DNA of 64,000 nt, taken from NCBI GenBank assembly GCA_965655095.1, contig OZ296658.1, positions 46,252,001 through 46,316,000 of the forward strand, given 5' to 3'. The notes beneath the pieces were generated by a model. That model saw only the letters and a list, made by a program, of their open reading frames with translations. It was not told the origin of the DNA and ran no database searches. Of the stretch, positions 1 through 36,429 are shown in pieces. Position numbers and translations under genes: made by a program. The stretch is from Haplodiscus bocki (lineage: Eukaryota). How positions within the stretch are numbered: position 1 is the first letter of the stretch; each line of letters starts with the position of its first letter.

Positions 1-425
1 AAAAACGATGACTATACATGGCACTAACAAAGAGTTTTTAAAGTTTGATAGAGATCTTTTTTTCAAACAAAAGGAAACAATATACAAAAACTGAATGAAG
101 TTTTGGGAAGTTTTACAAGTGACAAGAATGTCTTAAGTAGTGGAAATTACGAAATTCATTGAAAATGTGAATGTTTTGATGGAAACACTGTAAAGAAACA
201 CGAAACTTGTTCTGAATAGACGTATTTTTAATAAATACCCTGGCCAAAAATTAAACAAAAATCCTAGATTTTAATTTCCTAAGAGAACTTGAAAAGAGAA
301 TTTCATAAGTTTGTTTTGAAGGAAAAAAATCTGACAGAGGAAGGTCAGCAAAACAAAGTGTTTTTCACTGAAGAAATTACGACTATTACCGTGTTGCTAA
401 TGGAACTCGAAATACGAAATTACTG
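1..425 (+). pseudogene. Penton/minor capsid-like gene, C-terminal remnant (first, partial copy)
   Basis: Frameshifted translation EFLKFDRDLFF...SDKNV..IH*KCECFDGNTV...NKYPGQKLNKNPR...EEGQQNKVFFTEEITTITVLLMEL resembles the Polinton penton C-terminus pattern (KCDCIxGSxVNG...PGxKIxxEP...LEDDxxxxVDFNxExxxFTxQL) as I recall it. Confidence 0.55.
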
Positions 426-689
426 ATAAGTTTTACCTATACATTATGGATAAACTAATAACCAACCGGAGATTGAAAAACCTTCCCAAAATTTGTAAAA
501 TTACTTCTTGTCATTCTTTGTTAATTTTACAGGAGAAAGATTACACTTCATAGGTTGAAGTAGGAGAAAGAATATTTCGCGTGGCTCTCCGAGCTTTTGT
601 TTGAACTGTTAGCTTGGTTAGTATTCATCCTTTACAAATAAGTGTAACTACTAAATTGATATTTCATACAACAGAAAAAAAACTGAAGA

Positions 690-945
690 CATAATAGTTT
701 TATTTAATTTAATTAAACAGTGGTTTTAAAGTTGAATAGACTGAAATGACACTGCAAGAGACATTACAACCTAAATTAGGGGAACCACGGGAGTTATTTT
801 CATTTGATGTACCTTTAGAGTTATGAGACGATTGTGCTGGTCAAGAAGATGGATATATGTTAGGACTAACTAGCTTAGACGTAAAACTTTCCGTTTCTAA
901 AAAAACTCGAGAAAAAATTTAGAATGAAACGTGTTAACCTGAAAG
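690..945 (+). pseudogene. Penton/minor capsid-like N-terminal remnant (also ~3220-3470, ~5770-6030, ~8310-8545)
   Basis: LQETLQPKLGEPRELFSFDVPLEL*...YMLGLTSLDVKLSV here; the second copy reads SWMLGLTSLDV. Matches the FxxPLxL...WxxGLxSLExYNSxFNI start of single-jelly-roll penton-like proteins of Polinton-like elements. Confidence 0.5.
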
Positions 946-1225
946 TACGCAGCGCAATAGCTAACAAACACGTCAATCATTCAAACCACGAAAAGATTTT
1001 GTTGAAAGATCAGAATAAAAGCTTGCAGAAGATGAAACAACAAGACCGGTTGTTAATTAAAAATTATTGGAACAATTTTCAAAATCCTGGCAGAGCGTAT
1101 GGTTTTTGTGCAAAATTTAATAAATCAGGAGTATCTAAAAGTTGAAGAGTAGCATTATCTACTAACTCTGATGTAATTTTTTGTCATACTGGAAACTACT
1201 AAATCTTGACGACTTTGTACTGATA
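924..1225 (+). pseudogene. Small basic virion core/membrane-active-like protein remnant (also ~3450-3745, ~6010-6310, ~8543-8845)
   Basis: ORF 924..1145 plus read-through: QNPGRAYGFCAK..SGVSKS*RVALSTNSDVIFCHTG. The fourth copy reads KNPGKAFGLCVKAGSVGVSRS*RAALSKTSDVV. Recognised only as a small gene typical of such elements; function inferred. Confidence 0.35.
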
Positions 1226-1226
1226 A

Positions 1227-1720
1227 ATGAGTACTTCTAAGTTATTTCCATCTGCACCACTAGAAACAAAAAACAATGTTGAAGAGAGGTTAGCCTATTG
1301 AAAGAACAAAATAAACCTTTTTCAAGTTTTTTCTGAAATTTTTGAAGATTTGATAACCTACTTGATACATAAAAATCGTGAATCGAAAAAGAATTATTAG
1401 AAATCTTTTCGAAAACTGGTATCGAGGTTTTGAAAATCTAATGAGTCCTATAAAAAAATTTTGCTAAAACATCTATTTGTATTTCTTTAACTGCTTTTGG
1501 ACTTGTTTTCAAAGTAATACCAATATCAATTGCAGTAGCAAGTGGATTAACAATTAGAGAGTAAAAATTGACGCAAAGCACAAAAAATGTGAAATTATAT
1601 TGAGACAAGAGAACAAACTACTATCACTTTTGATAAAGATTATAGAAAATGTTCACATGATAACACAATGGGCAGAATGAGAGCCTTATAGAACTTTTCT
1701 CTCCAAAAAAGTCGAATGTG
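1227..1720 (+). pseudogene. Putative membrane protein with N-terminal PSAP motif (copy 1)
   Basis: ATG at 1227 gives MSTSKLFPSAPLETKNNVEERL, then ITYL.HKN.ESKKNY and a hydrophobic VIPISIAVASGL segment. Multiple stops and frameshifts. Confidence 0.5.
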
Positions 1721-2344
1721 TAAAAAAAATTTCCTCAAAGTGTTTTTTATACAATTGCTTCTTGGTATTGAAGAGAAAAGTAAACCACGCAGAGGGCAAA
1801 ACTGCTTTTTGAGCCTCGATGAGAAATTTCGTACAGCTAATGCTCGAAGTGATGGCTACACTTTACCCAGAGAACAAATTAGTTTGAAAAAATATTTTCG
1901 CAGGGACTGAAAGAAAATCTTCAGATGTAAAGAGAACCTTTATTGAATAATGAAAGGATGAAAAATGGATGCCGACTCATAACAAAAAAGAACACAGAAA
2001 CTGCAGTTCGATCGATTGTGAGCTTTTTTGTGTACTTTTTGTTATTGAAAGCAGAAAGTTCTTCACGCGAACATTGTAAATCTTTTTTTTGTAGGAGTTT
2101 GATTTCAAGGCGGAGCATATTTGAAAATGAAAATTTTGAAAGTTGTTTCTCGTGGGGATGCCAACAAACTTGGCCCTTCTGCAAGTTGGGACATGGACAT
2201 ATTTGTTATTTCCATATCTTCTCAGCAGTTTGAAAGTCCTAAGAAAGTTTAAACAAAAGCGACGTGGCCCAAACAATCACTAAAAATTCGCTACCTGAAC
2301 GTTTTGCTGTATAATGTTTAGTGTAGTGATATGAAAGACATGCT

Positions 2345-4905
2345 GTAAGGATTGAAAAACAAATATATTGAATCAAAGTGTAAATTACACAAGAAGTACA
2401 TTGATACTGAAGATAAATCGTTAGGTTTCCAACTTGTAACGTATGAAGTGAGAGAAATTGGTAACACATTAAAAACAGTTTCACTTGAAAATTCTAGCGG
2501 AAGCGATGCAGGAACTGGTATAATAGCAGTTGGTTTTAAAATAAAAAAGTTATGATTACACATTGCACTCGCAAGGAGTTTCTGAAATTTGATAAAAAAC
2601 AATTTTGTATAAAAAAAACTATTTACAGAAACTGAATGAGCTTTGGGAAGTTTGACAAGTGGCAAGAACGTTATAAGGAGCAGAAAATTTAAAGTTGGTT
2701 TGAAATGTGAATGGTTTGATTGAAGCAAAGTAAAAGAAACACAAAACTTGTTTTAAAAAGACAAACTTTCCAAAAACACCCTGGCCGAAAACTAAACAGA
2801 AAAGCTAGAATTGAGGATCATAAGAGAGCATTTGTTTCTGTTTTGAAGGAAAAAAATCATTAGATGAAGAGGAGCAAAACAAACTACATTCTTTTGATGA
2901 AAATACTACCGTTACCAACTTGCTAACGAAACGCCAACTATAAAGCTATTGATAAGTATACACTTTACAGTACGTATAAACTAATATACAATCTGAGGTT
3001 GAAAGGCCTTCCCAAAATCTGTAAAAGTACTTCTTAACATGCTTTGTTGATTTTATAGGCAAATGAATAACCTTCACAGGTTGGAGAAGGTGGAAAAACC
3101 TCTTCGCGTGGCTCTCCGAGCCCGGGAACTGTTGAACTGCTAGGTTGTATAGCATTCCCTTTTTACAGTTTTGTTAAATTACTAATTTGATTTTTTCTAA
3201 AACAGAAATTGAAACTGAATAAATGATAATTTTCATTGCAATAAGCAGTGGTAATTTACATGAATAGGCTAAAACAAAACCGCAAGAGATATTAAGACCT
3301 AAAAAAGCAAGACCAAAGTATTAAATTTCTTTTGATATATCTTTAGAAACAGGAGATGATTGTGCTAGTCAAGAAGACAGTTGGATGTTAGGGCTAACTA
3401 GCTTAGATGTATAGCTAACTGTTTTTAGAAAAAAAAGAAAAAGAAAACGAAAAGTGGTAAATTAAAGGGACGAAACATTTTAGCAAACAAACCTCTCAAC
3501 CCTTCATATAACAAAAAAATGGTGATGAATAGTTAGAATAGGAAGATCTCGAAGATGAAGCAAAGTCCGGTTGTTAAGGATAAATTATTGACACAAAAGT
3601 TAAAATTATGGAAAATTGTTTGATTTGTGTGCGGAACTAGATAAAGCAGGGGTTTTAGAACTTGAAGGTTGCTTCATCTACTAGCTCTGACATAGTAACA
3701 CTCTGTCGAACTAGATTGACTTGTTTCTTGAGAACTTTGTAAAATTATACGAGTACATCTAAAATAAATCCATCTGCACGACTAGAAACAAATAGCATTG
3801 TTCACAAGAGATTAACCAGGAAAAAAACCAAACCAAAAATTTATCAAAATTCTTGAAAACTGTTAAAGAATTGATAAATTACCTGAGATATGAAAATTGT
3901 GAATCAAAAAAATTATAGGTGTAAAATTATTATAGAGTTTTCAAAAATATAATGATACTTACATAGATTTTGCTACAACACCTATCGCTTTTACACTGTC
4001 TGATATAGGAACTAGTTTCATAGTAATACCAATATCAATTGGACCAGCGCGTGGAGTTACAATTAGAAAGTTAGTAAAAACTGAACTATTTATGGAAAAA
4101 CACTATAAATGTGAAAGTATAATGAGAGATGAGAACAGACTTTTAGCTCTTCTGATAAAAGATATAGAAAATGACCACAAGATAGCACGATTGTGAGCAA
4201 AAGAACCTTAAAGATATTTTAAATATAAAATGTTGAAATGTTTAAATTAGTAATGCAATGATTTTTTGTCAAAAAACTTTTTTACAACTGCTTTTTATTT
4301 TTTAAGAAAAAATTAAACCAGGCAGGAGTCAAAATTGCTCTTTGAGCCACAATCAGAAATTTCATAGAGCTACAGCTCAAAGTGATCGCTACACTTTATC
4401 TTGAAAAAAATAGGTTTGAATATATGTTTTTGCAAGCACTGAAAGAAAAACTGAGAAGAAAAGAATTTCTATAGAAAAGACAAAAACAGATGTAAAGAGA
4501 ACCTATATTGAAAATTGAAAGGATGAAAAATGGATGCCGACTCATAACAAAGAAGAACACAGAAACGGCAATTCGATCGATTGTGAGCATTTGTGTGTGT
4601 TTTTTCCATTGAAGGCAAAAAGTTGACTACGCGACAATGTAAAACTTTTTTGTAGGACTTTTTTTTCCAGGCAAAACATATCTCAAAACAAAAATTTTGA
4701 AGATTGTTTTTGGTAGGGAGGCCAACAAACTGGGCCCTCCTGGAAGTATGGACATGGACAACTTTGTTATCGCCAGATCTTCTCAGCAATTTGAAAGTCC
4801 TAAGGAAGTTTAAACAAGGGCGAGGTGGCCCAAACAGTCACTAAATGTTCGCTACCTGAACGGTATGCTCTATTATGTAAACTGTGACGATCTGAAAGAC
4901 AAGTT
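2345..4905 (+). repeat. 2.55-kb unit, copy 2 (penton C-term, penton N-term, core-like, PSAP membrane protein, protease, ATPase N-half remnants)
   Basis: Colinear with the other copies; contains the best-preserved Walker A (VGLFFPGKTYL, 4652-4684). Confidence 0.85.
4625..4905 (+). pseudogene. N-terminal fragment of A32/FtsK-like packaging ATPase (Walker A only; also ~2065-2345, ~7165-7435)
   Basis: gga ctt ttt ttt cca ggc aaa aca (4655-4678) = GLFFPGKT, followed by YLKTKILK...FVIARSSQQF. Copy 3 reads VEFSFPGKTYL and copy 1 reads VGV*FQGGAYL. Confidence 0.7.
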
Positions 4906-7435
4906 GTAAAGAATGAAAAACAAATATGTTTAATCAAAGTGTAAAATACACAAAAAGTACAATGATACTGAACATAAATCGTTGGGTTTTCAACTTGTAA
5001 CATATGAAGTGAGGGAAGGTGGTGACACATTAGAAACAGTTCTACTGGAATTATCTAGCGTAAACGATACAAGAACTGATTTAAAAGCAATTGGTCTGAC
5101 CATAAAAAAAGTAAGGAATATACTTGGCACTAACAAAGAGTTTTTAAAGTTCGATAAAATTTTTTTTTTGTACAAAAAACGATTAGCAAAAACTGAATTA
5201 GCTTCAGGAAATTTTACAGGTGACACGAATGTTACAAGTAGTGGAAAATATAATTTTCTATTAGAATATGCATGTTTTGAGAGAAGCATAGTAAAAAACG
5301 ATAAAAACGGCTTTAGAGGGGCATATTTTCAACAAACAGCCTGGCTAAAAATTAAACAGAAAACCTAAGAATAAAATTCGCCAGAGAGCATTTAATTCTG
5401 TATTGAAAGGAAAAAAAATATTTAGGTGAAGGTGAGCAAAACAAAGTATGTTTCTTTGATGAAAATACGATCATTACCCTATTGCTAACCAACCCCGAAG
5501 TACAAAGCTACTGATAAGTATATACTTCACAATATGCATAAACTGATATACAATCTGAGATTGAAAGACCTTCCCAAATTTTGTAAAATTACTTGTTACC
5601 ATGCTTTGTTGACTTTATAGGCAGGAGAACGACCTTCACAGATTACAGATCGTGGAAAATACTTCTTGCCGTGGCTCCCCGAGCCCCTGAAGTGTTACGT
5701 TGTATAACATTCCCCCTGTACAAAAAATTTTATTCACCAATTTGAAAATTTCTACACCAAAAATTAAAACTGAAGATTTATTAGTTTTAATTGCAATGAA
5801 CAGTGGTTATTTACTTGGAAAGACTGAAACAAAACCGCAATAGACATTCAAAACCTAAATTAGCAAAACCACAGGAGCGATATTGATTTGATGGACCTTC
5901 AGAATTAAGAGACGAGTAATCTAGTCAAAAAAACAGTTGGATGATAGGACTAACTAGATTAGATAAAAAACCTTCTGGTTTCAAAAAAAAACTAAAACAA
6001 GAAATACAAAACTGAAATGTGTTAAATTAAACGGACAAAACACCTAGCAAACAGACACGTTAATATTTCATAAAACAAAAAATTGGTAATGAATAGTTAC
6101 AATACGAAGATCTAGAAGATGAAACAAAGGCCGGTTGTTAAGGATAATTTACTGGAACAAAAATAGAAATATGGAAGAGCGCTCGATTCATCTGCAAAAC
6201 TTGATAAAGCAGGGGTTTCTAGAAGTTGAAGGCCAGCTATATCTACTAGCTCTGACATAGTAACAGTTTGTCATACTAGGTTGATTTGAATCTTTTCAAC
6301 TTTTTAAAATGAAACCGAGTACTTCTATGTTATATCTATCTGGAAAATTGAACACAAATATCCTTGTTCAAGAGAGATTAGCCAGGAAAAAAACAAGAAA
6401 CGCTTTTTTCAAAATTCTTCAAAACTATCAAAGAATTGATAACTTACCTGAGATATGACAATTGTGAATCAAAAAATATTAGGAGTAAAAATATTCTTGA
6501 GCTTTTAAAAATATACTGTTACTTGCATAGTTTTTGCAACAACATCTATCTCTATTACAATGTCTGATGTAGGAACTAGTTTCACAGTAATACCAATATC
6601 AATTGGACCAGCGCGTGGAGTTACAATTAGACAGTTAGTAAAAACTGAACTATTTATGGAAAAACACTATAATTGTGAAAGTATAATGGGAGATGAGAAC
6701 AGACTTTTAGCACTTCTGATAAAAGATATAGAAAATGACCACAAGATAGCACGATTGTGAGCAAAAGAGCCTCAAAAGGATATTTATTTCAAAAAATTCA
6801 AATGAGTAATGAACTGATTTTTTGTCAAAAAACTTTTTTTACAACTGCTTTTTATTTTTTAAGAAAAATGTAAACCACGCAGGAGTCAAAATTGCTCTTT
6901 GAGCCACAATGAGAACTTTCATACAGCTACACTTTATCCTGAAAAAAATAGGTTTGAATATATGTTTTTGCAAGTACTGAAAGAAGAACTTACAAGAAAA
7001 GAATTTTTATAGAAAAGACAAAATCAGATGCAACAAGAACCTATATTCAAAATTGAATGGATGAAAATTGGATACCTACTCATGTCAAAAAAGAACACAG
7101 AAACGACATTTCGATCGATTGTGAGCATTTGCGTGTAATTTTTGCTTGTGAACTCAAAAAGTTCTCTACGCGACAACGTAAAACTTTTTTGTAGAATTTT
7201 CTTTTCCAGGCAAAACATATCTCAAAGCGAAAATTTTGAATTTTTTTGGAAGGGTTGCCAACAAATTGGGCCGTCCTCGAAGTAAGCACATGGACAAAAT
7301 TGTTATTTCCAGAACCCTGTAGCAGTTTGAAAGTCTTAGCGAAGTTTAAACCGTGGCTCAAAGGGTCAGTCAAAAGTTGGCTACACGAACGGTTTGCTGT
7401 ATCATGTATTTTGTAGCGATTGGAAAGACATGATG
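4905..7435 (+). repeat. 2.55-kb unit, copy 3
   Basis: Colinear with the other copies; ORF 6560..6760 (TSFTVIPISIGPARGVTI) is the hydrophobic part of the PSAP-type membrane gene. Confidence 0.85.
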
Positions 7436-8053
7436 TATGGATTGAAGAACAAATATATGGAATCAACATATAAAAGACACAAAAAAACATCGATACTGAA
7501 CATAACTCGTTAGGTTTCGTAATTGTAACACACGAAGAGAGAAAAGGAGAGAAACTGATAACACAATTAAAACAGTTTTACTTGGAAAAACTTCCGGAAC
7601 TGATACAAGAACTAATATAATAGCAATTGATTTTACAATGAAAGTGCTATGGTTGTACATGGCACCCACGAAGACTTTTTAAAATTTTTAAAAAAGCAGT
7701 TTCCACACAAAAATACGATTTATAGAAACTGAATGAACTTTGAGATGCTTTACAGGTGACAAGATTCTCATAGTTGTTGGAAAGTAAGAAAGTCGCTCGA
7801 AATGTGATTTCATTAGTGGAAACTTTGTAAGACAAAGACGAACACTTGTTTTGAATAGAGATACTCTTAAAAATTACCCTGGCCAAAAACTAAACAGAAA
7901 ACCTAGAATTAATAATGATTTGTTTGAAAGCATTTGCTTCTGTTTGAAGAAGAAAAAGGATTAGATGAAGATGAGCGAAACAAAGTACAATACTTTGATG
8001 AAATTACGACCGTTAGCAACTTGCTTACGAAATTCGAACTACAAAGCTACTGA
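7435..8053 (+). pseudogene. Penton/minor capsid-like gene, C-terminal remnant (copy 4)
   Basis: SKCDFISGNFVR...NYPGQKLNRKPRI...LDEDERNKVQYFDEITTVSNLLTKF across frameshifts. Confidence 0.55.
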
Positions 8054-8849
8054 TATGTATACACTTTACAATACGGACAAACTAAAATACAACCTGTGAG
8101 TTAAGGACTTTTCCAAAATTTGTAAAAGTACTTGTTACCACGCTTTGCTGATTTTATAGAAGGAAGAATTACCTTCACAGGTTGGACAAGGAGAAAATTA
8201 ATACTTCATGTGGTTATCCGAGCCCCTGAGTTGTTACGTTGTATAACCTTTATCTTGTTCAAATATTTTTAATTACTACTTTGAGTTTTTGTATACCAAA
8301 AATTAGAACTGAAGAATTAATAATTTTAATTGCAATAAACAATTGTTTTTTACTTGAATTGACTAAAACAGAACAACAAGAGACATTAAAAGCTAAATTA
8401 GCAAAAGCACGGGACTGATATTAATTTTATGTTGCTTTAGAATTAGGAGACCATTGTGCTAGTCAACAAGACGGTTGGATAATAGGATTAAACAGCTTAG
8501 ATAAAAAACTTTCTGTCTTTAAAGGAATTTAAAAAACTGCGAATGAAAAGTGTTAATATAAAGGGACGAAAGATTTTAGCGAACAAACAGGTCAATCATT
8601 CAAACAACGAACAGTTAGTTATGAATATCTAGAAGATGAAGATCTAGAAGATGAAACAATAAAACCGCTTGTTAAGGATAATTTGTTGGAAAAAAATTAA
8701 AAATCCTGGAAAAGCGTTTGGTTTGTGTGTAAAAGCTGGAAGCGTAGGGGTATCTAGAAGTTGAAGAGCAGCTTTATCTAAAACCTCTGATGTAGTCACT
8801 TTTTTGTCATACTGGAGAGGTTTTCACTTTGACAACTTTGGATAGATAA

Positions 8850-9370
8850 ACGAGTACTTCTAAGTTATATCCATCTGCTCCACTAGAAACAAATAGCTTT
8901 GTTCCCGGAACATTGGCCGGAAAAACAAACAGAATAATTTTTTTTCAATCCTCTTGAAACAAAATTAAGGAATTGACAACCTACTTGAGATATGAAAATC
9001 GTGAACCATAAAAGAAAAATTAAAAAAAGAAGCTAGTATCGAGCTTTTGAAAAACTAATGAGAAATATATAACTGTTGCTACAATATCTATCTCTATTAC
9101 ATTATCTGCTAAGGCAAATGGTTTGATGGTAATAGCTGTATCAACTGGTGCAGCAAGTGGATTGATAAATAGAAAGTTAAAAAGAGAAGAATTAGTTATG
9201 CAAAAGCTCATAAGTTGTGAAAAAAAATTGAGAGGGTACAACACACAACTCTTTCTTTTGATTAAAGATATAGAAGTGAACACAAAACAAACGATAATAC
9301 GATTGCGAGAAGACGAGCAAAAAAAGTTTGTTTTCACTTTTTTTACAAAATAGTCAAATCAGTTTAAAAT
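8850..9370 (+). pseudogene. Putative membrane protein with YPSAP motif (copy 4)
   Basis: (ACG)STSKLYPSAPLET at 8850-8891, then TTYLRYEN, then ATISISITLSAKANGLMVIAVSTGAASGLIN (overlaps ORF 9123..9353). Confidence 0.55.
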
Positions 9371-9725
9371 TAAATTTTTGTCAAGTTTTTTTTACAACTG
9401 TTTCCTATTATTTAAAAAAAGTAAACCACGCAGGGGGCAAAAGTGCTCCTTGAGCTACAATCAAAAATTTCTTACAACTAAAGCTCAAAGTGATCTCTAT
9501 AAATTACCAGAAGACAAATAGTTTTAACATAACATTTTTGCAAAGGTTGAAAATGAGCATAGAAGAAAACGACTTTTTGAGAAAAGACAAACAATTTGTA
9601 CAGGGTGCCTTTAAAGAAAACCTAAATGGATGGGAAATGGATGCCTACTCATTTTTAAAAACAACCCAAAAACAGAAATTCGATCAATTGTGGACATTTG
9701 TGTGTACTTTTTGCTACCTATGGCA
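9370..9725 (+). pseudogene. Adenain-like (clan CE) cysteine protease remnant (also ~1720-2050, ~4255-4612, ~6810-7150)
   Basis: PTHF*KQPKNRNSINCGHLCVLF at 9644-9712; copy 2 reads PTHNKEEHRNGNSIDCEHLCVFF. This fits the Q-x-x-x-x-S-x-x-CG-x-x-C catalytic-Cys motif. Upstream GQNC..ARSDGY may be decayed GxHW..FDSYG (weak). Confidence 0.55.
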
Positions 9726-9729
9726 ACAG

Positions 9730-10390
9730 TTTTCCACTTGAACGATGTAAAACTTCCTTTGTAGGAACATCTATTCCAGTTAAATTTTATCTAGAACTGA
9801 AATTTTTGAAATTTGTTTTCGGTAAGGATGCCAACAAAGTCAACCTTCCTCAAAGTAGGGACATTTTTGTTTCAGCCAGATCCCCGCAGCAGTTTGAAAG
9901 TCTTAGCGGAGTTTAATTGAAGGCAACGTGGCTGAGAGAGTCCCTAAAGTTTCTCTACCTAAACGTTTCGTTTTTAAATCTAATGTTTTACTTTTTGATG
10001 AAAAATGCTGGTATTATTGTTTTCGATGATTAGTTAGATCCTAAACAGAAGGCAAATATTCCACTTTTTAAAAAAGGAGGTCGGGAAGATTTAGATGTTT
10101 AATGTTCATCTCACGCTTATTTTGATTTTCGAGGAAAAACTGTTTTGGAAAACTTGCTGCAATTTTTTTTGAACATTTTTTAAATGACGTGGAAAACGTT
10201 TACAGAGATAATGCTGGGTTTGATATTGATTAAATTGAATTTGAGGATCTTTGTAGAGAAATAAGGAGAGGTGAAGATTATGATTACTTGGTTCTTGATC
10301 GATCTAAAAACGAAGTGATGGTAAAGAATATTTTTGTAACGAAAGCGAAGAAACATATATAGGATGTAAACCAGAAACAAATTCATTTTG
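9730..10390 (+). pseudogene. A32/FtsK-family DNA-packaging ATPase, near full-length pseudogene
   Basis: RCKTSFVGTSIPVKFYL (decayed Walker A)...RDIFVSARSPQQF...NAGIIVFDD*L (Walker B)...LFKKGGREDLDV*CSSHAYFDF (decayed RGRH / SQSYF)...LNDVENVYRDNAGFD...EFEDLCRE...YDYLVLDR...YIGCKPETNSF. Confidence 0.85.
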
Positions 10391-10409
10391 CGTGTACAAT
10401 CAAGAAGCA

Positions 10410-11480
10410 TTTTTCACTGGAAAAAGTTGGTTAAGAAATTTTGAAAGAGCTAGCAGAGTTACGACTGAAAGTGAAACAAGTGCGGGTACGAGAAACAGAG
10501 GGTTTTCATTATGTTGCAAAAGGATCATTTGAACCAATTATAAAGACAGTTAAGGAAACAAGTGAAAAAGCTGTTGTAGAATGTAAATGCACAAGTGCAA
10601 CAAACATGATTAAAATTTTAAAAATTTTCCAGGAACAAGTGTTGTTAGTGCCTTTGCTCAGACAGAAAAATTTTCTGATGAAGCATTAAAAACAAAAAAA
10701 AGAAAATGGAGCAAAACCAAGTATTTCTGGCCATTTGTTTGGAAAAATAATTGCTTTTGATACAAGAATTGTGTTACACCCAACTGCTAGATAGCAAAAA
10801 GATGGGGAACAACATTACCTACTCATTCAGAAGCATCCTGTTAAAACTGAGTGGGATAAGATTGTTTACCAAGAAGTTTATGATAAACCATTCAAGTCTT
10901 TTGATTCGCCAAGTGATCTGTTCGAAGTGATTTCCGACAGAAACTTCAAAAACAGGAAATCTGAAGCTTTTGAAGTTTTCCCCAAGTTTCAAGTTCAAAT
11001 GAGTTTCAATACTAAAAGAGATGTTAGAGCAAATGAGAGAAAATAAACGTGTAAAAAACTATGTTATTTTAGGACAAAACACTCCATTAGGTAAAGAGTA
11101 TATTGCTAACTAAACAACTTTTCCGAATGATCCTCCAGGTAGCTCAAAGACACATTATAGAACGTAGCGGAGTCAAGGAGTTTGATAGATCATCGAGGCA
11201 ATTTTCCTTCATAAGCTATGATGATGATATTGATTTTTAAACTGAAGATGAAATAAAAAGAAATAGTACTCAATCTCTCATTGGGTTAGAAATTTTTCTC
11301 TTTTTGAGAAATAGTTGAAAGAGTTTGTAATAGAAATTGCATTTAGTAAAACCAGAAAAGTAAGGCGGAAATGATAAGAAAGTTATTTGATGAAAAAAAA
11401 GAAGGATTTCATTGATGACTTCTTAGAAATCAACTGTAATGACCAATTTCAGCACAAAAAATTTTAAGCAATCGTTTTGT
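10410..11480 (+). pseudogene. Polinton-associated coiled-coil protein of unknown function, pseudogene
   Basis: ORF 10441..10689 (ELAELRLKVKQVR..GFHYVAKGSFEPIIKTVKE), a middle section LLIQKHPV..DLFEVISDRNF, and C-terminal KLHLVKPEK*GGND...IDDFLEINC..QHKKF. Lies between ATPase and MCP. Confidence 0.5.
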
Positions 11481-11489
11481 ATCATAAAA

Positions 11490-12752
11490 GTTCCCTTTAG
11501 CTCCTTATTAAGTTGTACTTAGATATCTTCCTTAAAAAAATTATCCCCGATATACTCCTGACGCATTGAACCTTGCTAATAAAGAAAATTCTCAAACTTC
11601 TATTAGAATTTCTCATGCGGTTATATAATCTATATCTTGATTTAGCAAATTTTGTGAATCAATAGACTGGCATTCTCCATTCATATTCAGGTTGGGATCA
11701 TGAATAATCAGTATTTTTAGGATCCATTGTTGTCTTCAGTAATATTATATTGACCATTAGTAATGGAAGGAAACACAAATTTTTGATATTGATCGTTTTG
11801 CATGCTCGATGTATATATCATTAACTGGTAGCAAAGGTACTTACGGTTTGTCAATCAACTTTCACCTGACAAAGAAGTACCTGGAAGAGCATTGACCAAA
11901 AATAAAAAAAACTCAAAGAAAATATCAAGTAAGAGTTTTTTTAAAGGAGTTTTTTTTGGTATTGCTGTGCAACAAGAAAAAGCTACAGATGGGTTAGGGT
12001 ATATATTAACACTGCAACGAATTAGTGATAATATTGTATGGGTCATGAGCTAGCGGCTGGTGCTGCAGCTAACGATGCTATACCTGGAGGAATTGTGATG
12101 AAGGATATTAGTTAGTACCACAGCATACTCAAAATGCTTTATGGCAAATTTTATGGATGGAATACATTGTATGCTGCAAAATATTTGATTTTTTTGATAG
12201 ATCAATTTTTACTGAAGATATTCACACTGATTTACTTTTGGTTTTTTGAGTTGAGAGTTGAAGAAAAAGTTGACGTCCCGAGTTATAATGAAGTCGCGTT
12301 TCTGCAAATGGCTCAAATAGATCTATTAGCATAAAATATCGACTCAATCTGCAGACCATCTGTTTCATGTACTCCATTTTTTTAGTTACGTCAAAAAATC
12401 TCTACAGATGAGGTAAGTTATTGTGATTAAACGATTGATAAAAATTCTCAAGCATATCAAGAGATTGTGTCCCATTTTAGACGTTTGTCGAAGGATAATT
12501 TTCTTCAATCATATAGTACGCAAAAGGTTTTTTGACAGCTTGTGTTAAGTATCCAGACGGTAGTCCTGCATACAATTTTTAATATTTTTCATATACATGT
12601 TTCAACAACAAGATTTTCTAATCCTCAATCTAAAAAAAACTGATTTCAAACCAATTGCTCTAGCTGTACCTAAATGAATTGGGTATGCTCTAGCCTTGAC
12701 TAATAAAATTTTATCAAATAGTGAATTCGGACAACAATCAATCGTCCTAAAT
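11490..12752 (+). pseudogene. Double jelly-roll major capsid protein (hexon-like), apparently full-length pseudogene (~420 codons)
   Basis: Across frameshifts: YPRYTPDALNLANKENSQ...LGSIVVFSNIILTISNGR...FGIAVQQEKATDGLGYILTLQRISDN...WFFELRVEEKVDVPSYNEVAFLQ...NSQAYQEIVSHFRRLSKDNFLQSY...GYALALTNK. The FGFxExxxKxxYGxxxxLxLxR block is characteristic of Polinton/adintovirus capsids. Confidence 0.8.
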
Positions 12753-12759
12753 CAAAACT

Positions 12760-13567
12760 TCTTTTTTTGTTCGCATTTTTACACTTTTTCAATGATATTT
12801 CCGATATATGTAGCAAAGCTTCAATAAATTTCTCGGATAATTGGTTTATTTGATAAATTAGTTTTGCAACATTAAAAATTTCTGTAAATGTATGTAACTC
12901 ATCGCACTACTTTAAAATATCACCGTTAGAAAAAAATTCTACAGTTTCAGTTGAAACACTGATTTTAAACTTTGGTTTTTTTTCTATCTAATCTCTATTA
13001 GGTTTTTGTAAACAACCTCTCCATTGTTTTTCAATTGTGTTTGGATTGGTGCTTACCTTTTGAAGAATGCCTTGAGTTGTTTTGTTTTGTTTTTCATTCA
13101 CTGAAGTTTTTTCATTTATCCCATTAGCATTTCGTTTTTCGTAAATAAGTTTTCTAAAGCAGATTTCTAATGATGATTCTGTAAAAACTTTTTGAACTGA
13201 CCTTTTTGATGTGAAGTGACTGTAACTGCTAATCATTTCATCTCCAGAAAGTCCTTGAAGCTTTTGTTGACGAACTATTTTCCATCAGAAGTCTCAATTA
13301 ATTTTAGTTTTCTTTCTGATGATATAGTATTATTTTCCATTGCATCTGTTTTGGTTTGTGCATATTGAGTTTTAGAAGCAACTGTCCATCCAAATTGATA
13401 AAACTCTCTAATACTATTAAAAAAAGTAGGAAAAAACTTTTACAATTGAGTCAAAAAAGATCCTGCTCCATTTATCATCTGTGTCAGATGCATCCGCTTC
13501 GTTGGTAGTTTGAATCTTTTAGGGGATTAGCATGACTGTCCTTTACAAAAATACTATTTTTTTTCAT
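12760..13567 (-). pseudogene. Retroviral-type (RVE, DDE) integrase of Polinton, pseudogene
   Basis: Minus strand from ATG at 13567: IFVKD...SIREFYQFGWTVASKTQYAQTKTDAMEN.TISSERK...LIETSDGK*FVNKSFKDFL...YSHFTSKRSV..FTE...NANGINE...VVYKNL...FFSNGD. These match the IDxFSKFGWxVPLK / IETDxGxEF / AERFNRT regions, all decayed. Confidence 0.82.
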
Positions 13568-13596
13568 CTAGCAACCTGAATACGTATTTCCTTCCC

Positions 13597-14800
13597 TTAA
13601 TTCAACGAATCGCTTTCAAATGCATAACCATATTTTTGTTTATCTTCAAGTTACACAATTTGTTTTCCTAGATTCCTGTATTCTTGTTACATGCATGTCA
13701 TTCCTAAAAAAAATTGTTATAAGATTTTTCTTCTTCTGTAAGTTTCCAAAAAGGCAATCACTACACTTATCAACTCCTACATTTTTAAGTGTTCCTTCGG
13801 TTACTCTTTTTGGTTCCTTTTCCACTTTGATCTTAGTTCTGTAAGCATATCCTTTTCGTTTTAATGCACAGATTTCATCTCTTGTTAATGTTTCAAGACT
13901 TTTCATTCTCCCTAACTTCAGACAAAACTCAGGACATATCCTAAGTTTTGAAGAAAAGTCAAAAGTGATGTGTTTTTTGCATTTTTCCAATTGCCAACAT
14001 TTGATCTCATTTTAGTATGCGGCTACAAGTAAAAGAATCGGTATCCTTATTTTGGAAAATTAGATTGTTTTTCGCCATGAAATAGATGTATTATACTAAA
14101 GTAACTTTCTTACACTTGTTTCTTCTGAAATTTCTAAAATTGTAAAATTTACGAAAATTTCCAATGGTATCAATTTTCTTTCCTTCCAAAGAAGCTATTT
14201 CCAAATTGCTGTTTTACACACCTTTCATATTCAATTCCAGGTACTGGTTTTTTTCTGACATCCTCCGTTTGATTTCTATATAAATGGAATTCATCTTTCC
14301 GGTATGGGTTTTCCAAAATTCAAATCTGCTTCATCTGGTGACTTAGTTTTTTTCATCTACACACTTTTCCATCCATTGTTTTTGGTAAAATCCTACAACT
14401 TTTTTTAACTTAGTAATTTTAATACCATGTCTAACACTTTATTTTCTTTTCTTGAAGGACAAAAGTTGTCTTTTTTATCCGACCAATCACGAGTATGTTT
14501 CCCTGCTAGTTTTATATTATGTAGTATAATTTTTTCCATGTAGTTTGTGAATGATGATAGATCTTCTGTTTTAGACTCTGGACAAAAAAGAATGTATTTT
14601 GTTTTGTGTTGGACTTTTCTGGGTATTTTCGATCTTTTTCTAAAAACTAACCAACTTCAGCATCTTTTGTTGTTGCAAATAATTTTTTCAATGGTATGTT
14701 TTCAATAAATTCAATCTTTGTTTATGGTAAAGCATCTGGATTGGAGCCTCCAGAAAAATTCTTTGGATCATCAATTTTTTATCATCACCCTTACCATAAT
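13597..14800 (-). pseudogene. Protein-primed family B DNA polymerase (pPolB), C-terminal half, pseudogene
   Basis: Minus strand: ALP*TKIEF...DAEVG*FLEKDRKYP...DWSDKK...VRHGIKITKLKKVVGFYQKQWMEK...NFTILEIS...KDTDSF (14031-14045)...FDFSS...LGRMK..DEICALKRKGYAY (ORF 13646..13990)...EDKQKY. Stop at 13597-13599. Confidence 0.88.
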
Positions 14801-15399
14801 TTCTGTTGCGATGTACTTTTAGTGCAATTGAGTGAGGTGGCATGCAGTTCCTTCTACTAGATTGAGGCTTGATGCAGCTAACTTTCGATAACAAAGTCTG
14901 TCATGGTTGATTGGAGTGCACTGGAGCGCGTTGTGTACGGCTTCTTGCCCATAAATTCCGAGAGGTACTATCTATCTGCTTTCGAGTGAGTTTTAATGCG
15001 ACTCTTTTCAACTAAAAGCATAAACACTGTAGTCGTTGAATGGACATGAAAAGAGATGTGGTATGGATCAATTTCGAATGATTAGAGATTGGTGGATATG
15101 ATGTTTAGCTTGACCTTCCCTGAGGTGTATGTCGAATCCTCAACTAGTTTCATAAATGTCACATATTCATTCGTATAACTGTCGGGAAGGATGTTATTTT
15201 ACAAGATGAAGTTCATGTGAGTCAAACATAATGCTTCATAACATATTATATATCACGAGCTAATAGTTAGAAATAAGGGATTCAGAAGAGGACATACGAT
15301 TAGAGTGAGTTATGTTTAGTTAAAGTTAAGAATTTTTTTCATAAGAACACGATAATAACCATTTCATTGAAACTGATTCATGGAATTGTTTTTTTTTGA

Positions 15400-17513: not shown

Positions 17514-20085
17514 GCAAAAATTTCACGCTTGAATTACTTAGGTCAAAAAGTGGACGAATCCAGACTGACTGTAACAGCTGATTCCACCTTTCGCCCACGT
17601 CTTCCCTTTATGTATCATAAGACAAAAGGAATTGGATTTGTAGTATCATTGGATCAGCAAAATTTTACGCTTGAATTTTTCAGGGAAAAAAGTAAACGAA
17701 TCCGAACTGAGTGCAACAACCGATTGCACCCTTCGCCCATGTCGTCGCTTCATGTATCAAAATTCCAAAAGAATCGGATTCAGTGTTTTATTGAATAAGC
17801 AATTTTTTAATCTTGAGTTACTTAGGTAAAAGGTAAACGAATCGAGACTGACTGTAACAACCGATTTGACCTTCTCACATGTCTTCACTTTTTGTATGAA
17901 AATTCCAAAGGAATCGGATTTAGCGTCTCGATGGATAACCGTCTTTTACCCTTCAACTATTCAGAGCAAAAAAGAAATGAATCCAGACTGACTGTATTAA
18001 TCGATTGCACCCTCCGCCCAAGTCTTACTTTTAGGTATCAAAATTCAAAAGGAAACGAAATTAGTGTTTCATTGAGAAGGCGATATTTCACTCTTGAACT
18101 ACTTAGGGCAAAAACTAAACGATTCCGGACTGACTGTAACAACCGATTGCACCGTCCACGCATGTCTTCTTTTTTAAATCAAAGTTCAAGTTCAATGGAT
18201 TTAGTGTTTCATTGAATAAGCAATATTATACAATTGAATTACTTAAAGCAGATGTAAACGAATCCAGACTGACTGTAACAGCTGATTCCACCTTTCGCCG
18301 ACGTCTTCCCTTTATGTATCATAAGACAAAAGGAATTGGATTTGTAGTATCATTGGATCAGCAAAATTTTACGCTTGAATTTTTCAGGGAAAAAAGTAAA
18401 CGAATCCGAACTGAGTGTAACAACCGATTGCACCCTTTGCTCATGTCTTCTCTTAAATATCAGAATTCAATTGATTTGGACTTAGTGTTTCATTGAATAA
18501 GCAATAATTTACTCTTGAATTACTTACAGCAAAAGCAAACGAATCCAGACTGACTGTAACAACCGATTGCAACGTGTGCTCATGTTTTCTCTTCATGTAT
18601 CAAAATTCGAATTATTTGGAATTAGTGTTTCATTGAATAAGCAATATTTTACTCTTGAACTAATAGAGCAAAAGTAAACGAATCCAGACTGACTCTAGCA
18701 ACCGACTGCACCCATCGCCCATGTCTTCTGTTTCTGTATCAAAATTCAAAACAAATCGCTTTGGGTAATTCCTCGAAAAAGCAATATTTTATTCTTCAAA
18801 TACTTGAGGCAAAAAATAAACGAATCCAGACTGACTGTAACAACCTTTTGCACCCTTCGCCAATGTGTTCTCTCTTTGCATCAAAATTCAAAGGGAATCG
18901 GATTTAGTATTTCCTTGAATAGGCAATATTTTACTCCTGAATTACTTGGGGCAAAAAGTAAACAAATCCACACTGACTGTAACAGCTGATTCCACCTTTC
19001 GCCCACGTCTTCCCTTTATGTATCATAAGACAAAAGGAATTGGATTTGGAGTATCATTGGATCAGCAAAATTTTACGCTTGAATTTTTCAGGGAAAAAGG
19101 TAAACGAATCCAGACTGAGTGTAACATCCGATTGCACCCTTCTTCATGTATCAAAATTCCAAAAGAATCGGATTCAGTGTTTTATTGAATAAGCAATTTT
19201 TTACTCTTGAGTTACTTAGGTAAAAGTAAACGAATCGAGACTGACTGTAACAACCGATTTCACCTTCGCACATGTCTTCTCTTTTTGTATGAAAATTCTA
19301 TAGGAATCGGATTCAGTGCCTCGATGGATAACCACTCTTTTACCCTTCAACTATTCAGAGCAAAGAAGAATTGAATCCAGACTGACTGTAATATCCGATT
19401 GCACCCTCCGCCCAAGTCTTACTTTAATGTATCGAAAATTAAAAGCAATCGGATTTAAAGTTTCATTAGATAAGCAAAATTTTACTCCGGAAATAATTAG
19501 AGCAAAGTAAACGAGTACAGACTGACTGTAACAACCGATTGCACCCTTCGTCCATATCTTCCTCTCGTGTATCAAAAATCAAAAGGAATCGGATTTAGTA
19601 TTTCATTGAATAGGCAAAATTTCACTAATGAATTACTTAGAGCAGAAGTGAACGAATCCAGACTGAGTGTAACAGCCGATTGCACCTTTCGCCCACGTCA
19701 TCCCTTTATGTATCATACGACAAAAGGAATTGGTTTTAGAGTATCATTGGATTAGCAAAATTTTACGCTTGAAATTTTCAGGGAAAAAAGTAAACGAATC
19801 CGAACTGAGTGTACCAACCGATTGCACCCTTCGCTCATGTCTTCTCTTTAAGTATCAGATATCAAATGATTTTGACTTAGTGTTTCATTGAATAAGCAAT
19901 CTTTTACTCTCGAAGTACTTACAGCAAAAGCAAACGAATGCAGACTGACTGTAACAACCGATTGCAACGTGTGCTCATGTTTTCTCTTCATGTATTAAAA
20001 TGCGAATTATTTGGAATTAGTGCTTCATTGAATAAGCAATATTTTACTCTTGAACTACTAGAGCAAAAGTAAACGAATCCAAATG
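17514..20085 (+). repeat. Satellite HOR domain: ~10-mer (~1400 bp) built from two related 5-mers
   Basis: TGTATCATA(A/C)GACAAAAGG at 17611, 18315, 19019 and 19709 (spacings 704, 704, 690). Alternate 5-mers are most alike (1408 and 1394 bp apart). Confidence 0.75.
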
Positions 20086-21694
20086 AACGATTCCAGAGTG
20101 ACTGTAAAAACCGATTGCACTCTTCACCATGTCGTTTCTTTATGCATCAAAATTCAAAAGGATTCCGATTTAGTACTTCCTTGAAAAAGCAATAAAGTAC
20201 TCTTGAATTACTTAGGGCAAAAATTGACGAATCCCGGCTGACTGTTACAACCGATTGCACCCTTCGCCCATGTCTTCTCCATATGTATCAAACTTCAAAA
20301 TGAATCGGATTTAGTGTTTCCTTGAATAAGCAAACTTTTACTCTTGAATTACTTAGGGCAAAAAAGAAACGAATCCAGACTGACTACATCAGCCGATTGC
20401 ACCCTTCGCCCATTTTTCCTCTTTATGTATCAAAAGTCAAAAGGAACCAGATTTAGTGTTTCATTGAATAAGCAATATTTCTCTCTTGAATTACTTGGGG
20501 CAAAAAGTAAACGAATGCAGACTGACTCTAACAACCGATTGCACCCTTCATCCATGTCCTCTCTTTTTGCATCAAGATTCAAAAGGAATCGGATTTAGTA
20601 ATACCTTGAATGGGCAATGTTTTACTCCTGAATTACTTGGGGCAAAAGGTGGACAAATCCAGACTGACTGTAACAGCTGATTCCACCTTTCGCCCACGTC
20701 TTCCCTTTATGTATCATAAGACAAAAGGAATTGGATTTGGAGTATCATTGGATCAGCAAAATTTTACGCTTGGATTTTTCAGGGGAAAAAGTAAACGAAT
20801 CCAGACTGAGTGTAACAACCGGTTGCAACCTTCGCCCATGTCGTCGCTTCATGTATCAAAATTCCAAAAGAATCGGATTCAGTGTTTTATTGAATAAGCA
20901 TTATTTTACTATTGAATTACTCAGAGCAGAAGTGAACGAATCCAGACTGACTGTAACAGCCGACTGCACCCTTCGCCCATGTCTTCCCTTGATGTATCAA
21001 AAATCAAAGGGAATCGGATTTAGTGTTTCCTTGATTAAGCAATATTTTAATATTGAAATACTTAGAGCAGAAGTAAACGAATCCAGACTGACTGTAACAG
21101 CCGCTTGCACCCTTCGACCATGTCTTCCCTTTATGTATCAAAATTCAAAAAGGTTTGGATTTATAGTATCATTGGATCAGCAATTATTTACGCCTGAATA
21201 ACTAAAAGCAAAAGTAAACGAATCCAGACTGACTGTAACAACCGATTGCACCCTTCGCCCATGTGTTCCTTTTACGTAACAAAATTCAAAAGGAATTGGA
21301 TTTAGAGTATCATTGGATCAGCAATATTTCAGGCTTGAGTTACTTAGAGCAAGAGTAAACGAACCCCGACAGACTGTTACAAGCGATTGCAACCTTCGCC
21401 CATGTCTTCTTTCAAAGTATCAAAATTCAAAAGATTTGGATTTAGTGTTTCATTGAAAAGGCGATAATTTACTCTTGAATTAGTTAGACCAAACGTAAAA
21501 AACCTCGACTGACTGTAACCGTCGACTGCACCCTTCGACCATATCTTCCCTTTATGTATCAAAATTTGAGAAGATTTGGAATTTTAGTATCCTTGGATCA
21601 GCAATTAGTTATGCCTGAATAACTAAAAGCAAAAGTAAACGAATCCAGACTGACTGTAGCAACTGATTGCAACCTTCGCCCATGTTTTTTCCAT

Positions 21695-27075: not shown

Positions 27076-27479
27076 AATCAAAAAGATTTGGATTTATAGT
27101 TTCATTGGATCAGCAATTATTTACCCCCAAAGAACCAAAAGCAAAATTAAACGAATTCAGACTGACTGTAACAACCGATTGCACCCTTCGACCATGTCTT
27201 CCCTTTATGTATCAAAATTCAAAAAGATTTGGATTTATAGTTTCATTGGATCAGCAATTATTTACCCCCAAAGAACCAAAAGCAAACTTAAACGAATCCA
27301 GACTGACTGTAACAACCGATTGCACCCTTCGCCCATATCTTCCTTTAACGTATCAAAAATTCAAAAGGAATTGGATTTAGAGCATCATTGGATCAGCAAT
27401 ATTTCAGGCTTGAGTTACTTAGAGCAAGAGTAAACGAACCCCGACTGACTGTTACAAGCGATTGCAACCTTCGCCCATG

Positions 27480-35500: not shown

Positions 35501-36429
35501 TGCACCCTCCGTCTATGTCTCCTCTCTACGTATCAAAACTCAAAAGGAATGGGATTAAGTATTTCCTTGAATAAGCAATGTTTTACTCTTCAACTTCTTA
35601 GGGCAAAAAAATAACGAAATCAAACTGACTGTAACAACCTATTGCATCCATCACCCGTGTCTTCTCTTCATGTATCAAAAATCAAAATGAATGGGAATTA
35701 GTGTGCCATTGAAAAGGCAAATAATAACACTTGAATTACTTAGGGCAAAAAGTAAACGAGTCAAAATTGACTGTAACCACTGCGTGCAACTTTCGCCCAT
35801 GTCTTTTCTTTATGTATCAAAGTTCAAAAAGAAATTTAATTAGTGTTTCATTGAGTAGGGATGATTTTACTCTTGAATTACTTAGTGCAAAAAGTAAACG
35901 AATCCAGACTGACTGTAACAACCGATTGCACCCTTCACCCATGTCTTCTCTCTATGTATAAATATTCAAAAAGAAATGCAAGTAGTGTTTCATTGAAAAA
36001 GGATGATTTTACTCTTGAATTACACAGGGCAAACAGAATTTTAATCCAGACCGACGGTACCAACCGATTGCACCCTTCATTTATGTCTTCTCCCTATGTA
36101 TCAAAACTCAATAGGAATGGCATTAATAGTTCATCGAATTAGCAATATTTTACTCTTCATTTACTTAGGGCAAAAAGTAAACGAATCCCGTTCGATTGTA
36201 ACAACCGATTGCACCCTTCGCCCATGTCTTCCTCTAAGGTATCCAAATTCAAAACGAATCGGATAAAGTAATTCATTGAATAAGCAGTGTTTTACTCTTC
36301 AACTACTTAGGGCAAAATTAAACGATTCCAGACTGACTGTAACAACCTTTTGCATCCATCGCCCGTGTATTTTCTTTATGTGTCAAAAATCAAAAGGAAT
36401 CGGATTTAGTGTTCCATTGAATAAGTAAT

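Follow-up and report, generated by a model that had tools for sequence, protein, structure and literature searches.

A decayed Polinton in the Haplodiscus bocki genome with an internal segment in five diverged head-to-tail copies

Analysis of the first 14,800 bases of a 64,000-nucleotide stretch of the Haplodiscus bocki genome (contig OZ296658.1, positions 46,252,001 to 46,316,000; hereafter the window) is best explained by a dead Polinton whose internal segment stands in five diverged head-to-tail copies, and we hold with considerable confidence that these were likely multiplied after integration by host recombination or slippage. Polintons are self-copying, virus-like transposons. Judged by the homology of the remnants to intact copies in the same genome, bases 1-14,800 read as a badly decayed member of a Polinton family that is very common in this genome. 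The features identified are listed in Table 1.

Table 1. Features of the window, with frameshift-aware alignment scores against reversed-DNA controls
Feature	Position	Strand	Content and evidence
Unit U1	1..2328	+	Self-alignment, unit boundaries and gene mapping; start 212 bp upstream of the window; penton 1 (ORF355) 3' part, penton 2 5' part 655-913, ORF137 tail 1071-1193, ORF177 1233-1676, ATPase 5' half
Unit U2	2329..4889	+	As U1; penton 2 3184-3426, ORF177 3755-4192, Walker A-like ~4649-4702
Unit U3	4890..7418	+	As U1; penton 1 4892-5472, penton 2 5739-5964, ORF177 6309-6756
Unit U4	7419..9985	+	As U1; penton 2 8296-8679, ORF137 tail 8696-8839, ORF177 8856-9342
Packaging ATPase pseudogene	9540..10388	+	Start approximate; 3' half single-copy at 10013-10388; score 181 vs 34-39 (aa 123-249)
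Coiled-coil ORF remnant	10433..11303	+	Relative of a 281-aa ORF in young copies; score only 61 vs 37
Major capsid protein (MCP) pseudogene (double jelly roll)	11539..12749	+	Score 252 vs 30
rve integrase pseudogene	12763..13564	-	Score 271 vs 32
Protein-primed PolB (pPolB) pseudogene, C-terminal third	13612..14772	-	Score 278 vs 44; second reference 179 vs 44
142-bp satellite array	17520..64000		329 copies in the window

The original prediction, of a capsid-encoding Polinton/Maverick fossil visible only as short open reading frames, held in both respects. The longest stop-to-stop frame in positions 1-16000 is 165 aa (92 frames of at least 50 aa), and frameshift-aware alignment to intact ORFs of the same genome recovered remnants of MCP, penton, ATPase, integrase and pPolB, as well as ORF177 (scores 164-205), while reversed DNA gave 30-46. 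The penton pieces scored 69-99 (reversed 33-44). The MCP pseudogene carries 7 frameshifts and 7 stops over 390 aligned codons, the integrase 7 and 5 over 266, and the pPolB 8 and 7 over 383; lesion density is similar in single-copy and repeated genes, at about 3-5 per 100 codons. The coiled-coil remnant also showed DNA matches to older copies (E 3e-49 and 7e-42). The ORFs of young relatives score as double jelly-roll (DJR) capsid, rve integrase, pPolB and A32 ATPase: an intact MCP relative matches PF21738 (DJR, E 1.9e-8), all seven intact integrase relatives contain PF00665, and the intact pPolB relatives match PF03175 (E 4.9e-14 for the reference ORF used for the window). Pox_A32 was above the cut-off in two of four intact ATPases, the other two giving weak P-loop matches. 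The profile check proposed for the window fragments themselves was negative, the expected Pfam families being found in 0 of 14 and 0 of 10 single-frame segments because these are too short and too worn.

An intact 364-aa relative from the young copies is predicted to fold as a penton. Its model, built from a deeper alignment (mean pLDDT 78.8), matched the mavirus penton (Foldseek E 8.2e-8; Z 11.8, rmsd 10.8, 231 aligned) and PBCV-1 chain 6ncl_a6 (Z 11.5, rmsd 3.1, 126 aligned); a model made earlier with a shallow alignment (pLDDT 44) could not be used and did not enter the structure search. PDB sequence searches gave no match for the MCP, the ATPase alignment or the protease-like alignment described below. 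Atlas look-ups of ORF177 (best 0.88) and ORF137 (0.78) returned only unnamed Preplasmiviricota-rich clusters, below threshold. By eye, the cationic helix of ORF137 resembles the cupiennin-like class named in the available part of PMC8502044.

The predicted convergence of the MCP on the integrase and pPolB was found here and also in a young copy with terminal inverted repeats (TIRs) 98.7% identical. Both GC and AT skew change sign, from positive values as far as about 12 kb to negative ones between 12.5 and 14.5 kb, which confirms the strand-skew flip given at about 12755; the cumulative maxima (11461 for AT, 12181 for purine, 12563 for GC) lie close to the MCP/integrase convergence at 12749/12763. 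The element is less complete than the "nearly complete" gene set that had been announced. In the window the pentons and ORF137 are partial, about two-thirds of the pPolB is absent and unrelated repeats adjoin it, and no terminal inverted repeat was found from 20 kb upstream to base 17500, which gave neither a match to 17 TIR arms nor a self-inverted repeat, a loss that is expected of a truncated fossil. Positions 14800-17500 showed no match to the fetched Polinton loci. The satellite beyond was considered as a Polinton derivative and rejected, since three of its units, compared by blastn with the element and with the fetched loci, produced a single 20-bp match. The assembly has a gap 7.0-7.2 kb upstream of the window.

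Self-alignment revealed that positions 1-9985 form an array whose head-to-tail units recur about every 2,545 bp (1-7349 against 2545-9916 at 73.6% identity): four 2.54-kb units lie in the window (U1-U4) and a fifth upstream (U0). Every unit contains damaged remains of two pentons, of ORF137, of the LYPSAP membrane ORF (ORF177) and of half an ATPase. The unit edges cut genes, starting in the middle of penton 1 and ending in the middle of the ATPase, and ORF177 is the sole gene that is whole in every unit; the ATPase half of U4 continues into the single-copy 3' half. U1-U4 have in common a deletion of 936 bp, a multiple of three, which took away the final portion of penton 2 with the initial portion of ORF137; most of both is missing from these units. 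U0 is unbroken at this site. U3 and U2 are 81% identical overall and about 90% over some 800 columns. An assembly artefact was rejected: contigs of two runs cover 30 of 30 bins and single contigs span the three unit junctions in the window.

The array also bears on the original prediction that this stretch is a single ordered gene set, with a protease following the LYPSAP gene and preceding the ATPase. From U4 onward the order of penton, ORF137, ORF177, ATPase, coiled-coil, MCP, integrase and pPolB is real, and a C-G-x-x-C motif near 9690 resembles an adenain active site; positions 1-7418 repeat the genes of the U4 segment, which that prediction had missed. The motif reads C-E in three of the other units of the window, and the five units score 26-38 as protease against 30-42 for reversed controls. 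The supposed protease is instead the zinc-finger N-terminus of the ATPase, which precedes Walker A-like and Walker B-like motifs and weakly matches the ATPases of other copies (E 3e-7 to 1e-3). Among young loci, 19 of 20 carry a protease-like ORF upstream of their pentons, and a remnant of it was located 4.3 kb upstream of the window (G000:C11:46247524-46247767; score 117 against 28). We regard the single ordered set with its internal protease as highly improbable.

The protease-like ORF (133-140 aa) shows H-W, D, Q and C motifs by eye, in what we take to be the adenain order. Peptidase_C5 was found in none of its 21 members, and a profile comparison with a C5-positive protease gave a probability of 9.9% (E 0.003). 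A genome-wide Peptidase_C5 search returned two matches, both in another Polinton lineage.

Phylogenetic analysis of 20 copies placed the five units in one clade (bootstrap 100), within which U1-U4 (88) and U2+U3 (100) were recovered on a near-star tree. The dN/dS between units is 0.98 (95% bootstrap 0.81-1.20), against 0.45 (0.40-0.50) among the other fossils and 0.24 (0.21-0.29) among intact copies, with the same outcome on the identical 411 codon columns; third positions are not raised, private changes falling 102/100/107 on codon positions 1/2/3. A stop codon in ORF137 is present in four of the five units and in none of 13 other copies. The five units derive from one element, differ neutrally and, in four of the five, carry a stop codon absent from the other copies. 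The 38 stop positions comprise 30 found in one unit, seven in two and one in four; with 30 private to one unit, most of the decay therefore postdates the duplication. Stem changes common to all units (10 synonymous, 15 non-synonymous) did not differ significantly from private ones (22 against 73; p = 0.13). Codons were mapped through references just 22-54% identical, so some lesions scored as shared or private may be alignment errors.

Neutral divergence, the shared stop and the shared deletion together make it likely that the amplification came after inactivation, rather than being an expansion of viral genes. The contrary proposal is a functional gene accordion, in which the penton and membrane-entry genes were multiplied while the virus was active, their copies diverging under selection before the death of the element. 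The repeated segment does hold capsid-vertex and candidate membrane-active genes, the family already possesses two penton paralogues (about 40% identical), and the deletion is divisible by three. The neutral dN/dS, with third positions not raised, largely refutes it, and the gene-cutting unit edges, the loss of most of penton 2 and ORF137 from U1-U4 and the stop common to four units also speak against it; we consider such an accordion very improbable. A poxvirus-type accordion would keep whole genes under purifying selection, unlike these units with their dN/dS of 0.98 and their edges that cut through genes at both ends.

A second alternative, which we think unlikely, is that the array formed by template switching, as in defective-interfering genomes, during pPolB strand-displacement replication of a defective, helper-dependent Polinton that integrated already amplified. 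The near-star tree and the mostly private lesions indicate that amplification was fast and early, in keeping with such an origin, and the shared stop and deletion would also suit a non-autonomous genome. Other copies have internal arrays as well: at C5:115.89 Mb a 1.5-kb unit stands about 11 times (94-99% identical), and at C5:95.47 Mb a 3.18-kb unit about 2.5 times (98-99%). Against this, tandem duplications of at least 400 bp were found at one of 20 young Polinton loci (two with a further 11.5-kb duplication counted in) and in six of 20 random 20-kb windows, so there is no Polinton excess; the idea that Polintons are specially duplication-prone is unsupported. Among the matches listed, close matches (at least 70% over long stretches) to three parts of the array occur at this locus only, and five units would add about 10 kb to an element that measures 17-19 kb in young copies.

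The preferred reading is amplification in the host genome, by unequal recombination or replication slippage, after integration and the onset of decay. The element would have integrated through its rve integrase and acquired its first inactivating lesions, after which a 3.4-kb stretch from mid-penton 1 to mid-ATPase would have been duplicated, with junction microhomology of at most a few bases. The 936-bp deletion would then have arisen within the duplicate, and the shortened 2.54-kb unit would have expanded quickly to four copies. Long neutral decay (11-16% per unit) and a later partial homogenisation of U2 and U3 may have followed, and the right arm and both termini would have been lost at some point. 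The recombination mechanism is inferred; as for timing relative to integration, duplication in a copy already defective yet still mobile would look alike. The locus likely encodes nothing today; two-thirds of the 14.8 kb being four copies of one piece, likely amplified after the element's death, it is mostly ordinary genomic debris.

Transposon-derived tandem arrays and macrosatellites offer a parallel: part of the interior of a dead element is amplified head-to-tail and then decays neutrally, with patchy homogenisation of neighbours. The unit here differs in being 2.5 kb of former virion genes. In a partial literature search, of titles only, none reported an array of this kind from a Polinton.

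The fossil, presented originally as hidden, belongs to a family with 24,568 first-look MCP candidates in the genome; each of the best 100 reaches at least 90% identity, and most of these are open. The family makes up about 6-7% of a 400-kb sample, which is a sample and not a full annotation. The 10-base terminal motif occurs 4,966 times against 3,720 for the control, too close for a copy number. The intact relatives with TIRs and with target-site duplications of 6 bp that had been anticipated were recovered: 15 of 20 young loci have an inverted terminal pair 17-19 kb apart, and nine of 12 young copies tested have the duplication, with offsets of up to 5 bp allowed. Two dissimilar pPolB types occur under one capsid module, in 10 young loci each. 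None of 120 cluster members was a named relative, and BLASTP found no similarity between the MCP and the capsid of the genome's second Polinton lineage (best E 0.18).

The gene content, with pPolB, rve integrase, A32-type ATPase, DJR MCP and penton, is that of Polintons/Mavericks (class Polintoviricetes), from which this copy differs in its five-unit array, its lack of detectable termini and its pPolB reduced to the last third, and the family in its two penton paralogues and 283-aa integrase (283-286 aa in intact copies). Degradation is common in that group, 96% of 3,511 vertebrate Maverick loci being degraded according to the available part of PMC8097293. With adintoviruses, as described in the accessible portions of the reports, the family has in common a PF03175-type PolB, hexon, penton, packaging ATPase, integrase and small candidate membrane-active ORFs, and degraded endogenous relics and duplicate pentons have been reported there (Starrett et al. 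2021, PMC8502044; Buck et al., PMC11071296). The predicted adintovirus label failed one test: no Chromo family was found in the seven intact integrases (of 19 found). Three PolB ORFs (two full-length, one partial) carry an endonuclease VII (HNH) domain instead of an OTU domain, which Pfam detected in none of them; Pfam may miss viral OTU domains, which the available part of PMC11071308 detects by structure comparison. The nematode Polintons, in the portion available of 10.1101/2023.08.22.554363, show the same pairing of one capsid module with either of two dissimilar pPolBs, and an HNH-type domain inside one pPolB type in both. In stony corals, the accessible text of PMC11131425 gives polintoviruses as about 7.8% of C. 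gracilis, with up to 1,724 regions and 2,802 MCP hits, described there as the highest count on record for metazoans; the two cases are alike in massive proliferation within a large genome, the figure of 6-7% here coming from the 400-kb sample.

Tentatively, and with rather less than even confidence, the fossil may be the old layer of a Polinton lineage, undescribed and probably still active, that would occupy 6-7% of the 1.5-Gb genome with thousands of copies and would equal or exceed the metazoan maximum published so far. It would have two fixed penton paralogues, no integrase chromodomain and two dissimilar pPolBs swapped under one capsid module, and its arrays of 99% down to 70% identity would form a time series from virus to macrosatellite. 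The locus itself is of little weight, since fossils of this kind are very numerous. It does offer a clean example of how a dead virus-like element becomes a tandem array of large units, in which shared lesions allow the sequence of events to be read, and it cautions that repeats may be mistaken for an ordered gene set. Its value lies in the family, whose Polintons of many ages make polymerase swapping, penton duplication and decay rates measurable on natural copies.

The window corresponds to G000:C11:46252001-46316000. Analysis of window bases 1-16000 revealed 92 stop-to-stop frames of at least 50 aa, the longest being 165 aa. Both GC and AT skew were positive over the first ~12 kb and had turned negative between 12.5 and 14.5 kb, with cumulative maxima between 11461 and 12563. 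Self-alignment indicated that nucleotides 1-7349 aligned with 2545-9916 (73.6% identity), 1-4895 with 5107-9998 (70.3%) and 8-2315 with 7649-9979 (68.4%); window bases 1-9985 therefore consist of four copies (U1-U4) of a 2.54-kb unit. The original prediction had described a single ordered gene run here and had overlooked this repeat. Contigs from two runs of one study, one of which may be the assembled sample itself, span the array stretch and cross all three in-window unit junctions. The satellite found further downstream is organized in higher-order blocks, with near-identical copies 1,836 bp apart, and is possibly a marker of heterochromatin or of a centromere.

A genome search with the array unit returned many relatives, and the loci around them carry long ORFs. 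ORFs of these intact loci matched the Pfam families DJR capsid (E 1.9e-8), rve (5.4e-12) and DNA_pol_B_2 (4.9e-14), while Pox_A32 was matched by two of four intact ATPases. The 364-aa ORF (penton 2) gave no match in Pfam; its predicted model (133-sequence alignment, pLDDT 78.8) best matched the mavirus penton, with further matches to adenovirus and Sputnik capsid entries and to viral minor capsid proteins. The 355-aa ORF directly before it (penton 1) is a paralogue, ~40% identical. The window was mapped by tblastn followed by frameshift-aware alignment to the natural ORFs, with one reversed-DNA control each, and the single-copy ATPase half, MCP, integrase and pPolB scored 181-278 vs 30-44 for reversed DNA. 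Pfam profiles applied to the window translations found the expected families in 0 of 14 and 0 of 10 fragments, so the identification runs through the intact copies. The first part of the window is a real Polinton fossil of known type, as had been predicted, but its anatomy had been misread with respect to the repeat array and the position of the protease.

Features of the window element and related loci (coordinates are those of the window unless a contig or locus is named)
Feature	Coordinates	Strand	Remarks
U0, fifth unit	G000:C11:46248360-46251787		3,428 bp, upstream of window
Content of each unit			penton 1 3' part; penton 2 5' part; ORF137 tail; ORF177 with LYPSAP; ATPase 5' half
ATPase 3' half	10013-10388	+	frameshift-aware alignment
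Coiled-coil	from 10441	+	weak protein score (61 vs 37 control); rests on DNA matches
MCP	11539-12749	+	frameshift-aware alignment
Integrase	13564-12763	-	frameshift-aware alignment
pPolB, last third	14769-13612	-	frameshift-aware alignment
142-bp satellite	17520 to end (64000)		329 copies
pPolB examples	L017:5260-8652; L028:1743-4439		fetched loci of the same genome

The protease had been placed between the PSAP gene and the ATPase. The protease-like ORF of the family scored 26-38 in the five units, which is control level, while a protease-like remnant 4.2-4.5 kb upstream of the window scored 117 vs 28 for its control; in 19 of 20 young loci, too, this ORF precedes the pentons on their upstream side. 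The stretch 3' of ORF177, with a cysteine motif near 9690, weakly matches the zinc-finger N-terminus of the ATPases of older copies (E 3e-7 to 1e-3) and runs into a Walker A-like motif; a protease after ORF177 was thus rejected. The upstream protease-like ORF is a putative adenain, based on motifs judged by eye; 0 of 21 members matched Peptidase_C5 in Pfam, a PDB search returned no match, and profile comparison with a C5-positive protease gave a probability of 9.9% (E 0.003).

Leftward homology to other copies extends ~6.4 kb upstream of the window, close to an assembly gap, and on the right side pPolB ends near 14770 and is followed by dispersed repeats. No TIR was found at the window locus between 20 kb upstream and base 17500. 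Inverted pairs 17-19 kb apart were present in 15 of 20 young loci, a sixteenth (a 72-bp internal repeat) being excluded, and 6-bp duplications in 9 of the 12 young copies tested. The orientation of pPolB varies among young copies; in one of them, L086, integrase and pPolB are both opposite to MCP, as in the window element.

In a midpoint-rooted tree of the ORF137-tail/ORF177 stretch that also included 15 other copies, the five units formed one clade (bootstrap 100), within which U0 split first, followed by U4, U1 and U2+U3. Unit-to-unit identity was 70-74% (81% for U2/U3). A 936-bp deletion is common to U1-U4, the corresponding U0 stretch aligning with penton 2 and ORF137, and all five units lack one base in the region of the ORF137 tail. 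Among 38 stop positions, 30 occurred in a single unit (5 of these where only U0 has sequence), seven in two and one in four, the last being found in 0 of 13 other copies. The dN/dS was 0.98 (0.81-1.20) between units, whereas eight other fossils gave 0.45 and four intact copies 0.24; this contrast also held on identical codon columns, and alternative handling of stops gave 0.90, 0.42 and 0.24, respectively. Each unit diverged by 11-16% from the column-wise commonest letter, and repeated and single-copy genes had a similar lesion density of ~3-5 per 100 codons. Taken together, the shared lesions, mostly private stops, neutral dN/dS, divergence and lesion density argue that duplication of the segment took place in an element that had already been inactivated, and that most decay came afterwards. 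Stem changes (10 synonymous, 15 not) and private changes (22 and 73) did not differ significantly (p = 0.13), so the lag before duplication is not measurable.

Over ~800 columns (window 3900-4900 and 6470-7400), U2 and U3 are ~90% identical, against 72-85% elsewhere, which points to a late exchange between these adjacent units by gene conversion or unequal crossing-over. In 1-9985 the decay of CpG sites was little higher than that of other C/G sites (0.103 vs 0.087), and the transition to transversion ratio was 0.76-0.89; both values suggest that the array locus has undergone little CpG methylation.

Internal arrays also occur in several Polinton loci picked by similarity, such as one of ~11 x 1.5 kb and another of 2.5 x 3.18 kb. 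A fairer sample was drawn by taking every fifth of the best 100 MCP matches: one of these 20 young loci carried a tandem duplication (offset of at least 400 bp, aligned over 70% of the offset), and one further locus has an 11.5-kb duplication that escapes this definition. By the same definition, 6 of 20 windows at round coordinates carried a tandem duplication, counting large-unit satellites. Since such duplications are common in random windows, they look like a habit of this genome in these small samples (20 + 20), favouring host recombination. The array of ~11 x 1.5 kb, in the Polinton at G000:C5:115886000-115903000 (L031-L033), is built of a coiled-coil/MCP segment whose copies are 94-99% identical and come in variants that alternate; it is a younger counterpart of the window array. 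A literature search of partial coverage, largely by titles, returned no report of a Polinton with such an internal array. Several other traits are already known: most Mavericks are degraded (96% of vertebrate loci; PMC8097293), and relic adintoviruses and duplicate pentons (PMC8502044, PMC11071296), pPolB exchange (10.1101/2023.08.22.554363) and endonuclease insertions within pPolB (PMC11071308) have been described.

Adjacent penton paralogues, ~40% identical, were present in all 20 young loci (for example L016:7045-8109 and L016:8273-9364), and in the folded penton the predicted jelly roll is interrupted by a large insertion of helical and beta structure. Under the same capsid module, the 20 young loci (L058-L097) carry either one pPolB type (10 loci) or another (10 loci); BLASTP between the two found no similarity (best E 0.56), and both matched PF03175. 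A second Polinton lineage in the genome differs in its capsid and encodes a Peptidase_C5 protease (L050:1585-3298; L051:1342-3248; L118-L123). A remnant similar to an ORF of L122, and penton-like, lies 7.2-8.0 kb upstream of the window, just past the assembly gap (L011).

A first look at the MCP gave 24,568 candidates in the genome, the best 100 of them 90-100% identical, and public collections held 2,638 relatives of MCP and 2,826 of penton 2. Across the twenty 20-kb windows placed at round coordinates (L098-L137), family-protein matches covered 23,788 of 400,000 bases (nine windows, including two with integrase-only matches, possibly retroelements), and DNA matches to at least three TIR-bound copies covered 28,608 bases (seven windows, one alone giving 12,795). 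In G000:C1:1-30000000, the matches listed for a terminal motif of 10 bases include 14 pairs, counted by eye, that face inward at a distance of 17-20 kb, or ~1 TIR-bound copy with this type of terminus every 2 Mb. Family DNA makes up ~6-7% of the sample, which would extrapolate to ~100 Mb of the 1.5-Gb genome and thousands of copies. This load, taken from a 400-kb sample, is comparable to the highest reported for corals (~7.8% in a coral genome; PMC11131425). Compared with this abundant family, which is the more promising lead, the neutral five-unit array is a modest variation.
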